44,763 nucleotides of DNA from a virus. This document shows, one piece after another, positions 6,235 to 43,997 of this stretch. The position numbers and the translations under genes are program-made. Under the pieces are notes generated by a model. It was not told the origin of the DNA. It ran no database searches and saw only the letters and a list, made by a program, of their open reading frames with translations. The DNA is taken from the UHGV virus genome UHGV-0246887; one strand, given 5' to 3'. Within the stretch, counting starts at the first letter, position 1; every line of letters starts with the position of its first letter.

Positions 6235-6266
6235 TTGGTGTGCAACCAATATAGCGCAACCAATTC
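6235..6266 (-). promoter_or_regulatory. Promoter-like region with two ATTGGTTGCA motif copies upstream of the clamp-like gene
   Basis: Minus strand reads TTGCAC-N18-TATATT with motif copies in the spacer and at +1; the same 23-nt string GCTATATTGGTTGCACACCAACA recurs at about 40638. Confidence 0.45.
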
Positions 6267-6366
6267 CAGCAGTGCAAGCGAATTTTGCGATTATTTTTAT
6301 CGCTGATAATATTAAGGCGTGAAGTCAAGCGGGTGGCCCGCTTTGCCACAATCCCAGGGGGATAGC

Positions 6367-7068
6367 ATGAAACTTACTAAAGCAGAATATGACGCGTTGC
6401 CGGAAGGTATGAAGGCGCTTTTTGTTGCCGATGGCGACGGGTATAAATCAACTTTCATGACCGCAGAAGAAGTACAGGCGGAGATCAAGGGTCTGAAAGA
6501 CAACAACGCGAAGCTGGTGAGCGAGAAGAAAGCAGAAGCTGAACGCCGCGCCGAAGCCGAGCGACTTGCGAAAGAGAAAGAGGAAGCCGCTGCGCGCAAA
6601 AATGGCGACCTCGAAGCGATCGACAAGTCCTGGAAAGATAAGTTTGCGAAACACGAAGCAGACACATCGGGAAAAATCGAAGCCTACCGCAAGCAGATCC
6701 ACGACCTAACCATCGGCAGCGCCGCCAAAGACCTGGCGTCGAAGCTGTTCGGTAAGAATGCTGGGATCATGCAACGCCACGTAATGGACCGCCTGACGCT
6801 GGAAGACGGCGAAGACGGCAGTCTGAAAGTGCGTGTCTTGCAGGATGGCAAACCGTCCGCGCTGACGATGGAAGAGCTTGAAAAAGAGTTCCGTAATAAC
6901 GCCGATTTTGCGTCCGTCCTGGCTGGCACGCCAGCAGGCGGCGCGCCTAGCAAACCGACGCAGGTTGTCGAAGATGTGAAGTCGAAAATCACGATGGGCC
7001 ACAGCTTCGGTATCACTGACCTTACGAAACAGGCTGGTGAAATCATCGCTAAGATGGGCGACGAGTAA
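6367..7068 (+). CDS. Scaffolding protein (putative)
   Basis: Highly charged, coiled-coil-like sequence (AEAERRAEAERLAKEKEE); located between head morphogenesis and major capsid genes; RBS AGGGGGA. Confidence 0.55.
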   Translation: MKLTKAEYDALPEGMKALFVADGDGYKSTFMTAEEVQAEIKGLKDNNAKLVSEKKAEAERRAEAERLAKEKEEAAARKNGDLEAIDKSWKDKFAKHEADTSGKIEAYRKQIHDLTIGSAAKDLASKLFGKNAGIMQRHVMDRLTLEDGEDGSLKVRVLQDGKPSALTMEELEKEFRNNADFASVLAGTPAGGAPSKPTQVVEDVKSKITMGHSFGITDLTKQAGEIIAKMGDE

Positions 7069-7075
7069 GCAGATT

Positions 7076-7098
7076 GCCCGCGAAAGCGGGCGATTTTG
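7076..7098 (+). terminator. Weak terminator or attenuator between scaffold and capsid genes
   Basis: Hairpin GCCCGC-gaaa-GCGGGC followed by GATTTTG. Confidence 0.35.
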
Positions 7099-7165
7099 CT
7101 AGCGCGGAAATCTAAGGTAACATTAACGTCACTGGGCGAATGCTCACAACTCAAAGGATTTCGAT

Positions 7166-8266
7166 ATGTCTTTAACAGTGTTCCAGCGTAAACTCGTTAC
7201 CGCGGTTACGCAAATGATCCCCGACAACCTGAACGTTTTCAACGCCGCCGCCAATGGCGCTGTTGTTCTCGGTACTGGTGAAGTGCTGAAGGATGTTATT
7301 GAGAAAATGTCCGTAGGCTTGATCGCCAACCTCGTTACCGACCGTAACGCCTACGCCCCTGTCGGCACTCCGGCAACCGCGAAAGTTCTGGCGCGTATGC
7401 TGACCAACTCGGTTAACCTTTCCGCAAAAGTGGGTCCGGTAGCAATCACTAAGGCTATGATGGCTAAGATCGAAACCAACGTTAACAGCGTTGCGGCTGA
7501 GATTGCGGCACAGGCTACTCAAGCGATTATGCTGCACTACCTGAAAGCTGGTATCGGCGCAAGTAAAGCGGCGATCGAAAGCAACGCAGCGGCAAAATAC
7601 ACCCAACCGGCGCGCGTTGACGGCGTTGGCGGTCGTACCTTCCCGACCCTGGCAGACTTCCCGCTGGCGGCTTCTAAGTTCGGCGATCAGGCGTCTTTGA
7701 TTAAGTCCTGGTTTATGGACGGCGTTACCTGGGCAAACTTCATTGCGTACCAGGCACTCCCTTCCGCTGAACAGGTATTCGCAATTGGCGATCTACAGGT
7801 AATGGGTGATGGCCTGGGCCGTCGATTCATTATCTCCGATGCCGCTGCCGATGCTATGGGCGCTGGTAACATGCTGGGTCTGGTTCCTGGCGCGGTTGCA
7901 GTTACCACCAACGGCCTCGATATGCTGGCGCAGGAGAAAGGCGGTAACGAGAACATCGAACGCTGGTGGCAGGGCGAGTTCGACTTCAACGTGGCCGTTA
8001 AAGGCTACCGACTGAAGGCGTCCGCTCGTACCCCGATCGAAGGTGTGCGCTCGTTCAAACTGGACGATATTACCACTTCCGCTAACTGGGAACTGGACCA
8101 GGGCCAGGTAGACAACGCACCGGCAACCGTGCAGGACGTTGGCGCTGTGGGTGATGGCGATACTAAAGGCCGTCGTAAGACCCAGGCCGCACAGGCAGTG
8201 CCTACCCGTCACATCAAGGAAACGGCTGGCGTACTGGTTACGCTGACTGCGACTACCGCGTCTTAA
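7166..8266 (+). CDS. Major capsid protein
   Basis: 366 aa ORF after scaffold, strong RBS (AAAGGA), followed by strong terminator; position and size. Confidence 0.7.
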   Translation: MSLTVFQRKLVTAVTQMIPDNLNVFNAAANGAVVLGTGEVLKDVIEKMSVGLIANLVTDRNAYAPVGTPATAKVLARMLTNSVNLSAKVGPVAITKAMMAKIETNVNSVAAEIAAQATQAIMLHYLKAGIGASKAAIESNAAAKYTQPARVDGVGGRTFPTLADFPLAASKFGDQASLIKSWFMDGVTWANFIAYQALPSAEQVFAIGDLQVMGDGLGRRFIISDAAADAMGAGNMLGLVPGAVAVTTNGLDMLAQEKGGNENIERWWQGEFDFNVAVKGYRLKASARTPIEGVRSFKLDDITTSANWELDQGQVDNAPATVQDVGAVGDGDTKGRRKTQAAQAVPTRHIKETAGVLVTLTATTAS

Positions 8267-8280
8267 CGGGCGCAAATCCC

Positions 8281-8309
8281 AAAGGGGCGGGCTTATGCCC
8301 GCCTTTTTT
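8281..8309 (+). terminator. Rho-independent terminator after capsid gene
   Basis: AAAGGGGCGGGC-ttat-GCCCGCC followed by TTTTTT. Confidence 0.7.
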
Positions 8310-8324
8310 ATAGGAGTGAATACA

Positions 8325-42675: not shown

Positions 42676-42727
42676 TTATGCAAGCGTGATATAGTCCCAG
42701 TGAGCTAAAACTTACTGGGACTTTTTT

Positions 42728-43018
42728 ATGGATAAGCTAAACGAGTGGTTATTTGCCCTTGCGTGTCTTGCTGGTGGCTTCGTAGGCGCACGCATTCATG
42801 GCGAGGCTACGAAGGGGCCGCTAAACTTCGTTTTGTATGTTGTAGTTGGCTTCCTGTGTGCCATATTTGGCGCACCGGCTATTGCCGAGTGGGCTGGTTT
42901 GTCGGGTGAGCGCACTGTCGCCGGTTTGGGCTTCGTAACCGCAATCTTCTGGATGCCAATCGCCGACCGGATCAGGGAGACTATTGCGTCGTTCCGACTT
43001 CCGGGGGGTGCAAAATGA
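42728..43018 (+). CDS. Holin (putative)
   Basis: 96 aa with multiple transmembrane segments, immediately upstream of endolysin. Confidence 0.5.
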   Translation: MDKLNEWLFALACLAGGFVGARIHGEATKGPLNFVLYVVVGFLCAIFGAPAIAEWAGLSGERTVAGLGFVTAIFWMPIADRIRETIASFRLPGGAK

Positions 43019-43260
43019 TTATCTCCGTCCTGTTGTTTGTTATCATCGGGGCTTCGTCCCTGTTTAACGTGTATGCGCCGTCCGTTCAGGATGGCTTCTT
43101 CGGTCGGGTGTTATATCTGCTAACAGCAATGACCTGTATTGTCGGGCTGTTGCAAACGGGAGACGTCTCTGATGCCACCTGGACCGCGTTAATCTGGCTG
43201 TTTGCATTGCGCACCCTGCGTAATGCTGTTTTGAATGGGGTAAAACATGCGATTCAGTGA
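43015..43260 (+). CDS. Second small membrane protein (holin/antiholin candidate)
   Basis: 81 aa, 2-3 hydrophobic helices, overlaps neighbours. Confidence 0.4.
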   Translation: MIISVLLFVIIGASSLFNVYAPSVQDGFFGRVLYLLTAMTCIVGLLQTGDVSDATWTALIWLFALRTLRNAVLNGVKHAIQ

Positions 43261-43738
43261 TAACGGTCTACGATTTACGGCAGCATGGGAGACTTTCAGC
43301 CCAGTGCCGTATTTCGCGACTAAGAAAGAGCAGGCCCGCGGCCTGTACACCTGGGGTTATGGTCATACCGGAACTAACCCGCCTCGAAGCATTACCCGAG
43401 CGGAAGCGCTGGATCTGCTTAAGCGCGATGTGGCGTATGCGGAGGACTGGGTGAACAAATACGCACATCCGAGCATTAACCAGGCGCAATTCGACGCGCT
43501 GGTGGACCTGGTAATCAACGCCGGTCCCGGTCCGATCGTACCGGATGACGTCGCGAATGATTTCGATGATGCGGTGCGACTGGGCGACTGGGCGAAGGTC
43601 CGTGCTACTCTGCCGCAGTTCCGCAAGCAAGGCGGGGAAGTGCTTAAGGGTCTGGTGCGCCGTGCAATCGGCAGACAGGCGCTATTTGATGGTAAGCAGT
43701 GGGACGTTGCCGAGAAAATCGGGCGTAACGCAGCATAA
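43247..43738 (+). CDS. Endolysin (lysozyme-like)
   Basis: N-terminal E...GYGHT motif typical of phage lysozymes; position after holins. Confidence 0.7.
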   Translation: MRFSDNGLRFTAAWETFSPVPYFATKKEQARGLYTWGYGHTGTNPPRSITRAEALDLLKRDVAYAEDWVNKYAHPSINQAQFDALVDLVINAGPGPIVPDDVANDFDDAVRLGDWAKVRATLPQFRKQGGEVLKGLVRRAIGRQALFDGKQWDVAEKIGRNAA

Positions 43739-43753
43739 TACGAGGAACACAGT

Positions 43754-43915
43754 ATGTTAAAAAGCATTCTTGATCATAACGCTGACGCGCTCGCCGCGCT
43801 GGCTAAAACCGAAGACCCTGGCGCACGCGCTATCATCGCGGACACTATCAGCCATGCAGGCGTCTTTGACGCGAAGCTGCCGAGTCCGCCACCGCCGGAA
43901 GAGCCAGAAGGGTAA
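43754..43915 (+). CDS. Small hypothetical protein (53 aa)
   Basis: AGGA RBS; Pro-rich C-terminus; followed by terminator. Confidence 0.35.
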   Translation: MLKSILDHNADALAALAKTEDPGARAIIADTISHAGVFDAKLPSPPPPEEPEG

Positions 43916-43921
43916 ACTACC

Positions 43922-43947
43922 AAGCCCGGATAATTCCGGGCTTTTTA
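43922..43947 (+). terminator. Rho-independent terminator after lysis cassette
   Basis: AGCCCGG-ataatt-CCGGGCT followed by TTTTT. Confidence 0.7.
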
Positions 43948-43951
43948 TTGC

Positions 43952-43997
43952 TTGACTCGGGACCAACATAGACGCCATACTGCAACCAACCAATGAG
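43952..43997 (+). promoter_or_regulatory. Sigma70-like promoter with motif at +1
   Basis: TTGACT-N18-CATACT followed by GCAACCAACCAAT. Confidence 0.4.

Follow-up and report, generated by a model that had tools for sequence, protein, structure and literature searches.

The viral genome UHGV-0246887 (44,763 bp, the window, analysed here over its whole length) carries a short recurrent word, hereafter referred to as the box, that is repeated mainly outside of genes and at predicted promoters on both strands. In megablast comparisons this genome was 92-94% identical over >90% of its length to the phages slur05, EC115, Over9000, TheodorHerzl (Bas14) and Sodalis phage SO-1, and on the basis of this identity to Escherichia phages and SO-1 it belongs to Dhillonvirus, the HK578/SO-1 type of virulent siphoviruses infecting E. 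coli. Since the reading frame of the last gene passes cleanly across both sequence ends, the genome is complete and circularly permuted.

With annotation carried over from Over9000 and TheodorHerzl, the terminase, head and tail genes (564-21073) and a tail-fibre gene (22370-24283) are oriented rightward, and a replication and nucleotide-metabolism block runs leftward from 37308 down to 24310. The genes for a 109-amino-acid (aa) helix-turn-helix (HTH) protein and a primase-helicase (37537-40141) point rightward, as do the small genes and lysis genes behind them and a final HTH-metallophosphatase gene, which extends over the sequence ends to position 532. Two leftward units, a single gene (5706-6206) and a two-gene unit (22267-21100), are embedded in the late region. 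Neither an integrase nor a CI-type repressor/immunity module was found in the annotation of close relatives or in Pfam/PHROG scans of small or early proteins, and the box set is thus not part of a recognisable lysogeny or immunity system; the genus is handled as lytic in the published work consulted. Rfam and tRNA scans of the genome yielded no matches. The literature on Dhillonvirus/HK578 promoters or transcriptomes and on Jersey-like phages contained nothing on transcription control of Dhillonviruses that we could find, the published papers examined hold no promoter or transcription-start data on this genus, and no description of the box was found in the searchable literature, where its sequence matched primers only.

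Sequence and distribution of the box

The box is 9-10 bases long, asymmetric and follows the consensus (A/T)ATTGGTTGC(A/C). Its core TTGGTTGC occurs in 20 exact copies, compared to 1.97 expected and a maximum of 6 in any single one of 100 dinucleotide-preserving shuffles, and the 10-mer ATTGGTTGCA occurs in 10 exact copies compared to 0.08 expected (100 dinucleotide shuffles). The original prediction of about 20 or more, mostly intergenic copies is therefore borne out, including its suggested comparison with shuffled controls, and its estimate of about one chance occurrence for an 8-mer has to be raised to about two. The exact TTGGTTGC copies are located at 6242, 6256, 16889, 22345, 25491, 27164, 27181, 30138, 40524, 41200 and 43982 on the minus strand and at 25503, 34422, 34438, 37333, 40154, 40208, 40243, 40615 and 40646 on the plus strand, and fall into 10 separate regions spanning 38 kb. 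Most of the coordinates predicted initially were accurate to within a few bases; others, including 34416/34432, 16899 and 41207, are corrected here to 34422/34438, 16889 and 41200, as are the three copies now placed at 40154/40208/40243.

Eighteen of the 20 copies lie outside of gene bodies in a genome that is ~6.4% noncoding (P ~6e-20 for >=18/20), the copy at 30138 and a variant at 30126 being situated within the final 8 codons of a VRR-NUC gene. The two copies inside gene bodies are those already recognised as coding in the original prediction. One exact TTGGTTGC copy is found in a minor-tail gene (16889..16896, minus strand) and probably represents a chance occurrence, with about 2 copies expected by chance; the other lies in the coding sequence of an 89-aa gene (41012-41281) at 41200..41207 on the minus strand and is also present in HK578 and contig L015. 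The base following the GC was A in 11, C in 6, G in 2 and T in 1 of the 20 copies, leaving TTGGTTGC as the invariant part and ATT not conserved. Variants with one mismatch were nearly all coding and background-like, the exception being TTGGTCGC at 30126, which is kept in relatives. Outside of the 8-10-mer the copies have no common sequence. The 23-mer GCTATATTGGTTGCACACCAACA, predicted as a string shared upstream of the clamp-like gene and gene 40676, was recovered at 6233-6255 (minus strand) and 40640-40662 (plus strand) and is common to the promoters P6277 and P40619 described below. The dyad TTGGT-N5-ACCAA occurs three times in the genome compared to 0.02 expected, each time directly after a -10 hexamer.

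Box copies at predicted sigma70-like promoters

Promoters were predicted with a position-weighted sigma70 consensus scan of both strands, and box positions are counted from a presumed start lying 7 nt beyond the -10 hexamer. Thirteen exact copies and the conserved variant TTGGTCGC lie at -40..+3 of nine sigma70-like sites, all of which face neighbouring genes and rank among the best-scoring sites of this type in the genome, on both strands. The nominal P of ~5e-9 for 14 of 18 copies in predicted promoters is partly circular, because the box itself resembles a -35 hexamer (TTGCAx) and promoters were sought near boxes.

Two of the nine belong to the leftward units of the late region. P6277 (minus strand, score 10.5; -35 TTGCAC at 6277-6272, -10 TATATT at 6253-6248) would drive the clamp-like/RusA-like gene 5706-6206 and contains exact copies at 6256-6263 (-22..-15) and 6242-6249 (-8..-1); the dyad TTGGT-N5-ACCAA at 6235..6249 overlaps its -10/+1 region and forms part of the 23-mer shared with P40619. 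The weak P22348 (minus strand, score 7.9; TTGCAT-17-AATACT, 22348-22320), upstream of a small gene (22037-22267) and a membrane-protein gene (21100-22074), carries an exact copy on the same strand at 22345..22352 (-39..-32). The partner of this copy proposed at 22333 is a degenerate TTGGTTGG that is not conserved in relatives; the copy proposed at 30127 is the TTGGTCGC at 30126, which is conserved.

Five further minus-strand promoters belong to the replication block. P25512 (score 11.2; -35 TTGCAA at 25512-25507, -10 TATAGT at 25488-25483) encloses the inverted pair TGCAACCAAT-CT-ATTGGTTGCA at 25490-25511, which is perfect as predicted. P27184 (score 9.3) has its -35 TTGCAT within the first of two direct exact copies on the minus strand (27164..27188, at -39..-32 and -22..-15) and its -10 TATCTT at 27161-27156. 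P30141 (score 10.0), which overlaps the end of the VRR-NUC coding sequence and precedes a 57-aa Lar-like zinc-ribbon gene (29908-30081), derives its -35 TTGCTG from the box at 30138-30145, is further associated with TTGGTCGC at 30126-30133 and has its -10 TATAGT at 30118-30113. P34459 (score 13.6; TTGACC at 34459-34454, 17-bp spacer, TAGATT at 34436-34431) precedes the genes for a Gp2.5-like single-stranded DNA-binding protein and DNA polymerase and contains two exact copies in reverse orientation, i.e. on the plus strand (34422..34445, at -21..-14 and -5..+3). P37354 (score 15.0; TTGACA at 37354-37349, N18, TATTAT at 37330-37325) is the top sigma70-like site of the genome, starts the leftward replication operon and has one exact copy in reverse orientation (plus strand, 37333..37340, at -22..-15); the originally predicted link to sigma70-like promoters on both strands, for which this site served as the example, is upheld.

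On the plus strand, P40619 (40619-40647, TTGCAT-17-TATATT with the -10 at 40642-40647, score 11.9) contains two exact copies, one of which (40615-40622) supplies the -35 TTGCAT and the other (40646-40653), which forms the dyad TTGGTTGCACACCAA, overlaps both the -10 and the start site; contig L026 likewise has two boxes in this arrangement, at a distance of 32 bp. P43952 (43952-43981, TTGACT-18-CATACT, score 10.9) has a reverse box at 43982-43989 (-6..+2) and precedes the genes for a 26-aa peptide, the HTH-metallophosphatase, terminase and the structural proteins. P37477 (37477-37505, TTGACA-17-TAGTTT, score 13.2), upstream of the 109-aa HTH and primase-helicase genes, contains no exact box and is followed by the degenerate dyad TTGGTCATTAACCAA (37508-37522).

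Arranged by position, the box is found at -39..-32 in the direction of transcription with TTGCAx as the -35 hexamer in four promoters (22348, 27184, 30141 and 40619), a contribution to the promoter not noted originally. It occupies -22..-15 (-21..-14 in one) in either orientation in five promoters, -27..-20 in two, both with variant copies, and -34..-27 reversed in one, and it is placed at -8..-1 forward in two and at -5..+3 or -6..+2 reversed in another two. Each recognisable promoter has a box or degenerate dyad, including the terminase/structural-operon promoter at 43952-43981, and the two leftward promoters of the reverse-oriented units in the late region likewise carry boxes; the originally proposed assignment to early/middle promoters is not supported. 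Reading the box as a "-10 plus start site" (TAnATT-GGTTGCA) was rejected, since the required flank is present at only 8 of the 20 copies and the reading does not accommodate reversed ones.

Several additional features were observed in the vicinity of these promoters. GC-rich hairpins lie ~10-30 nt behind several box-bearing promoters (25455-25483, 27125-27150 and 34395-34425), the one at 27125-27150 having a T-run as in intrinsic terminators; they may act as 5' stabilisers or attenuators, or may terminate the upstream operon in overlap with the promoter that follows. The first open reading frame (ORF) behind P43952 (44011-44091, 26 codons) has a good ribosome-binding site, encodes the hydrophobic peptide MARKDIWVLAIWTTAAFIGMVICELL and is kept in relatives. 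A 52-nt stretch at 37241-37292 shares 92% identity with intergenic DNA that is unannotated in JK16, JLBYU07 and other T1-like phages of Warwickvirus, and had no match in an Rfam search. The true start of gene 36610-37308 probably lies further downstream than annotated, an alignment of homologues suggesting a start near 37128, and the 52-nt stretch probably lies in a long 5' leader downstream of P37354, where it may be a shared leader RNA element.

Box copies beside an origin-like element

Four copies that had not been set apart in the original prediction flank an origin-like element rather than promoters. Three direct boxes of the subtype GCATTGGTTGCC follow directly after the primase-helicase stop codon on the plus strand (40154, 40208 and 40243, spanning 40154..40250), where no convincing promoter was found, and form the left flank of the element; one reverse box of the same subtype (40524..40531, minus strand) forms its right flank. 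The element itself (40262..40458, plus strand) is free of boxes and combines an AT-rich stretch with an array of GGGACA iterons (six direct, one inverted) and a strong, long GC-rich hairpin. It contains TGCATAAACCAAAC, is conserved past the primase-helicase gene and, judged by these features, looks like a replication origin. As is the case for iterons, a box cluster therefore lies beside an initiator-type gene and an AT-rich region; the core repeats of the element are GGGACA, distinct from the box, and the boxes are not confined to or concentrated at this site, 13 of the 18 noncoding copies being in predicted promoters elsewhere.

A second copy of the origin-like element of ~200 bp, 98% identical and without boxes, was observed at 11955-12157 between the tail chaperone and tape-measure genes. 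Since it lies there, ORF 11833-12144 may not be a gene. TheodorHerzl also has a second copy, 88% identical to that of the phage studied here; the copies are more alike within a genome than between phages, which suggests concerted evolution. The duplicated element possibly represents two origins or a P4-like ori/crr pair. In phiEap-2 a homologous region with GGACAA, GAATAGTTATGCA and a hairpin follows the primase gene.

Conservation among Dhillonvirus relatives

Nine regions were aligned with Dhillonvirus contigs from IMG/VR and GenBank (6-15 distinct sequences per region). Invariant columns amounted to 83% in boxes and 82% in promoter hexamers, compared to 66% in other noncoding positions (Fisher P = 3e-5). 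At 27164/27181 both boxes are unchanged and the 7-nt linker takes seven forms among the relatives; similarly, the boxes of the 6256 region are invariant and the spacer upstream of the box has five forms. At 25490, two tandem GCAACCAA, i.e. reversed boxes, replace the inverted pair in contig L038, and therefore the box was retained and its orientation was not. In the 43952 region, relatives have a second reverse box abutting the -35 that is mutated to CGGGACCAAC in the window.

Some relatives have an extra small gene directly behind the box-bearing promoter and ribosome-binding site in four regions (6206-6240, 27108-27125, 40676 and 44011), and at these accessory-gene junctions the context of the resident start codon is duplicated. 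Accessory genes seem to be inserted preferentially in this position next to the promoter.

Occurrence of the box in other phage lineages

TTGGTTGC is the top or near-top over-represented word in four further lineages. The divergent Dhillonvirus-like contig L398 (primase 68% identical) carries 10 copies within 10 kb; they are found at the promoters that have boxes here, and 3 lie at or past the primase-helicase 3' end. Contig L026 (primase 45% identical) has 16 copies in 22 kb, 7 of them at or past the primase-helicase 3' end. Klebsiella phage VLCpiS11a (primase 48% identical) and six contigs resembling it carry 13 copies per genome, and the box is their top intergenic 8-mer; in VLCpiS11a, 3 copies lie at or past the primase-helicase 3' end. 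Serratia phage Tsm2 (primase 46% identical) has 12 copies compared to 1.5 expected. Promoters with boxes were also found in these lineages, for example TTGCAA-17-TATAGT in VLCpiS11a and TTGACA-17-TATAGT-cat-GCAACCAA in Tsm2. In every box-bearing lineage some copies are clustered at or just past the primase-helicase 3' end. Four Tsm2 copies are within the primase gene in different reading frames, which points to constraint at the DNA level.

Only 0-3 copies were present in K1ind2, phiEap-2 and the GC-rich contigs L018-L025 and L027, with the one-base variant GTTGGCTG occurring at the P40619-equivalent promoter and in the origin region of phiEap-2 and L027. A scan of viral contigs for the paired-box pattern added, among the matches listed, chance matches, coding tandem repeats and only known Dhillonvirus contigs; the same scan of bacterial genomes, which has low power for degenerate host sites, returned scattered unrelated taxa among the matches listed.

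Other repeated words were observed in the course of these comparisons. The box-less K1ind2 (L169; 13806, 30484, 32582, 32626, 36078, 36111 and 37411) and phiEap-2 (L168; 11508-11900 and 12644-12690) contain promoter-linked repeats of a different kind. In K1ind2, ACTATTCA lies a few bases after TATAAT-like -10 hexamers, and both phages have GGAATAA-N-TTATTCC dyads upstream of the spanin/scaffold region; the operator vocabulary seems to be specific to each lineage. Contig L151 (IMGVR_UViG_3300038463_000167) contains 12 copies of TAATTGGTTGCATCC, with the same 9-mer core, in 420 bp (2750-3180) in both orientations beside an HTH-like gene, whose product was dropped as a lead for lack of similarity to the HTH proteins of the window. 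ACGGCAGC occurs in 22 copies compared to 2.5 expected, mostly in genes and 16 of them on the plus strand (e.g. 2092, 2915, 4421, 10431 and 13877), and in 28 copies each in phiEap-2 and VLCpiS11a. It could reflect codon/peptide bias (NGS, TAA) or be a Chi-like oriented signal; as an alternative promoter motif in relatives it was discarded, being a coding-region word.

Candidate binding proteins

The 109-aa protein (37537-37866, plus strand) combines a helical N-terminal part with a C-terminal HTH of the LuxR/GerE/sigma70-region-4 type (HTH_23 30.8 bits and Sigma70_r4_2 27.6 bits in Pfam) that resembles the DNA-binding domains of RhlR and SdiA, and it is present in all box-carrying Dhillonvirus-like lineages. 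Because it is the only dedicated small HTH protein, is kept in every Dhillonvirus-like lineage and has a degenerate dyad at its own promoter, it is the best phage-encoded candidate for a protein that may bind the box in Dhillonvirus, an assignment which we consider tentative and rather doubtful.

None of the other candidates follows the box across lineages. The HTH-metallophosphatase (380 aa, plus strand, starting at 44154 and wrapping to 532), with an N-terminal HTH-like segment recognised by eye and a metallophosphatase domain, was rejected as universal binder, as it is absent from L026, VLCpiS11a and Tsm2 and has a 76% identical copy in the box-less K1ind2; the recognition helix of the latter differs from that of the phage studied here. 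The Lar-like protein (57 aa, 29908-30081, minus strand) offers a zinc ribbon and basic tail as a candidate DNA-binding module and is found in all box-bearing lineages, yet also in box-less ones, including the unrelated phage L399 at 70% identity. In the Guernseyvirinae-like L026, VLCpiS11a and Tsm2 an XRE-type HTH protein occupies the gene slot upstream of primase, and it was discarded because the Tsm2 protein has a recognition helix similar to that found in box-less phages. The winged-helix-like C-terminal domain of primase has no features common to the box-bearing lineages, and the first genes behind the P40619-type promoter are not homologous across lineages.

Comparison of the box with known sites, made by eye, was likewise unproductive. 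The CytR octamer GTTGCATT is not conserved in the box, no box or pair gives the -24/-12 spacing of a sigma54 promoter (TGGCAC-N5-TTGCA), and the GntR-type ATTGGT-N3-ACCAAT, the NtrC site and the DnaA box fail on invariant positions or spacing.

A dispersed set of putative operators

From the enrichment of the box, its placement in promoters, its constraint and its spread across lineages we infer that the boxes may form the operator set of one sequence-specific DNA-binding protein that would block RNA polymerase, an explanation to which we give roughly even weight. Protein binding is suggested because a short asymmetric word is invariant amid drifting flanks and occurs in either orientation, at variable spacing and over core elements. 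One protein, either monomeric or a dimer whose DNA-binding domains are flexibly joined, would recognise each box singly, and such single-box recognition would account for the occurrence of lone boxes next to direct and inverted arrangements spaced 2-31 bp apart. The boxes would cover the -35 hexamer, the spacer beside the -10, or the -10/+1 region; from such positions over the promoter core a bound protein would exclude the host RNA polymerase, and the genome-wide set would throttle or time all phage transcription units jointly. The originally proposed operator for a phage regulator accordingly persists in its operator-like aspects (invariant boxes, varying linkers, flipping orientation and pairs), its designated binder, "the HTH protein", being no more than a candidate, as both the 109-aa HTH protein and the HTH-metallophosphatase are missing from other box-bearing lineages.

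Such an arrangement has precedents in temperate phages. The operators of P1/P7 C1 and the operator/"stoperator" sites of mycobacteriophage L5 gp71 comprise a dozen or more dispersed, short asymmetric copies that are single or paired and overlap promoters, and both proteins recognise their sites in a monomer-type manner that the box arrangement resembles. Like these, the box is a short, asymmetric, dispersed site far above chance expectation that is single or paired, lies in both genomic orientations and overlaps the core of predicted promoters. In contrast to them, where an identified gene encodes the immunity repressor of a temperate phage, there is a candidate binder here and neither an integrase nor a CI-type module was found, and unlike L5 stoperators, which have one orientation relative to transcription, the orientation of the box varies. 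GerE (consensus with TRGGY) and NarL (heptamers) recognise short asymmetric sites, single, direct or inverted, and activate or repress depending on position. The box arrangement is similarly flexible across promoter positions and the phage encodes a small LuxR-family HTH protein; the box is not a known site of either regulator, however, and three of the five box-bearing lineages lack the LuxR-type protein.

Several observations weigh against a phage-encoded repressor acting on these promoters. The 109-aa HTH protein was not detected in L026, VLCpiS11a and Tsm2, three of the five box-carrying lineages, so that a LuxR-type HTH regulator does not accompany the box wherever it is used. The HK578 homologue has an altered recognition helix (INRSTIRQW compared to INQSTVRSW) with the same box retained, the helix of the XRE-type protein does not follow the box either, and phyletic profiling of box-bearing and box-less lineages identified no phage-encoded regulator that co-occurs with the box; the lineages compared are few and not independent of each other phylogenetically. 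Promoters were called by their match to a consensus, to which the box contributes a -35-like TTGCAx, which renders the association partly circular, and a separate consensus scan of the genome gave no overall excess of promoter-like sites. Repression is deduced from position only and would also hit the promoter of the late structural operon, which needs further explanation. In four promoters the box is the sole -35-like element and may have a positive or dual, GerE-like role. The four copies at the origin-like element and the four inside the Tsm2 primase gene are outside of promoters. Overall, the promoters are predictions, the binder is a candidate and the operator reading has the best support of those considered, though it is unproven.

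Alternative explanations

A host DNA-binding factor conserved across Enterobacterales could bind the box and have been recruited independently by several phage lineages, which would tie their transcription to a host signal. This is consistent with the retention of an identical 8-9-mer across five lineages, although their candidate regulators are either unrelated or vary independently of it, with the known hosts of these phages (Escherichia, Shigella, Sodalis, Klebsiella and Serratia), and with optional use of the box, given that the box-less K1ind2 and phiEap-2 are related phages of the same hosts. On the other hand, a host repressor site in each promoter core would be strange in a virulent phage, none of the E. 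coli regulator consensuses inspected by eye (CytR, GntR-type, NtrC, DnaA and sigma54) matched, and the exact-pattern scan of bacterial genomes, with its little power for degenerate sites, gave only scattered unrelated taxa among the matches listed. We therefore regard a host factor as unlikely, if conceivable.

The box could also chiefly be a replication signal akin to DnaA boxes or iterons, bound by the primase-helicase or another replication protein, with the promoter copies coupling transcription to replication or serving as additional loading sites. Initiators that double as promoter repressors, such as DnaA and plasmid Rep proteins, are well known. Like DnaA boxes and plasmid iterons, the 9-bp asymmetric box occurs in both orientations, is clustered near an origin-like region beside an initiator-type gene and is found in promoters as well; boxes are positioned at or past the primase-helicase 3' end in five lineages (3+1 in the window, 7 in L026, 3 in VLCpiS11a and 3 in L398), the four primase-gene copies of Tsm2 disregard the reading frame, and the primase-helicase possesses a C-terminal winged-helix-like domain. 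Yet the box differs from the DnaA box TTATCCACA, the majority of its noncoding copies (13 of 18) occupy promoter cores rather than the origin, and the second origin-like copy at 11955-12157 is box-free. The primase C-terminal domains are unlike each other among box-bearing lineages, and this variable winged-helix domain is better matched by separate, lineage-specific iterons (GGGACA here, GGACAA in phiEap-2, ACTCGCAA in VLCpiS11a and TCCGCACA in Tsm2). A function that is primarily replicative is accordingly improbable.

Slightly lower still do we rate a promoter-specificity element read together with RNA polymerase by a phage activator or sigma-appropriating factor, in the manner of the T4 MotA box. 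The MotA box has one position (about -30) and one orientation. Similar to it, the box replaces or overlaps the -35 of otherwise sigma70-like promoters: four promoters have it at -39..-32 with TTGCAx as the only -35-like hexamer, as do several VLCpiS11a promoters and one in L026, and the 109-aa protein scores above the Pfam threshold for sigma70 region 4. In contrast to fixed MotA boxes, at least five position classes and both orientations were observed; boxes in the spacer (both orientations) and over -10/+1 would make an activator clash with polymerase, three promoters with a near-consensus TTGAC(A/C/T) -35 carry a reversed box, and no MotA- or AsiA-like protein was found in Pfam/PHROG scans of 30 small or early proteins.

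That the boxes lack a binding function and are remnants of duplicated promoter cassettes spread by recombination, with the 8-mer hitch-hiking, is very improbable, as the 23-mer common to two promoters and the variable extra genes directly behind four box-bearing promoters in relatives are set against copies with no common sequence beyond the 8-10-mer, boxes that stay invariant amid diverging flanks and are kept when their orientation flips, and an enrichment that extends to phages with only 45-48% primase identity.

Implications for virulent enterobacterial phages

Since no regulator follows the box across lineages, a host factor or a conserved replication protein stays in play as its reader. 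Such a reader, in place of a dedicated phage regulator, might mark the origin and gate every promoter, resulting in a DnaA-box-like coupling of replication and transcription in virulent enterobacterial siphoviruses; we think this unlikely, and if true it would explain the identical 8-mer across lineages with unrelated regulator genes (Dhillonvirus and several Guernseyvirinae-like phages).

Dhillonviruses are common, genetically tractable E. coli phages that are included in the BASEL collection and used for studies of defence systems and therapy. The box set may constitute a dispersed operator regulon, of the kind known from phages and plasmids, in this virulent phage group, where such a regulon is apparently undescribed. 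One box in all promoter cores would provide an experimental handle on the whole transcription programme, accessible with one bait and one mutation series, and a route to tunable or switchable promoters in engineered phages. It would further serve as a test case for regulon-style global operators, as in temperate phages and plasmids, in virulent phages.

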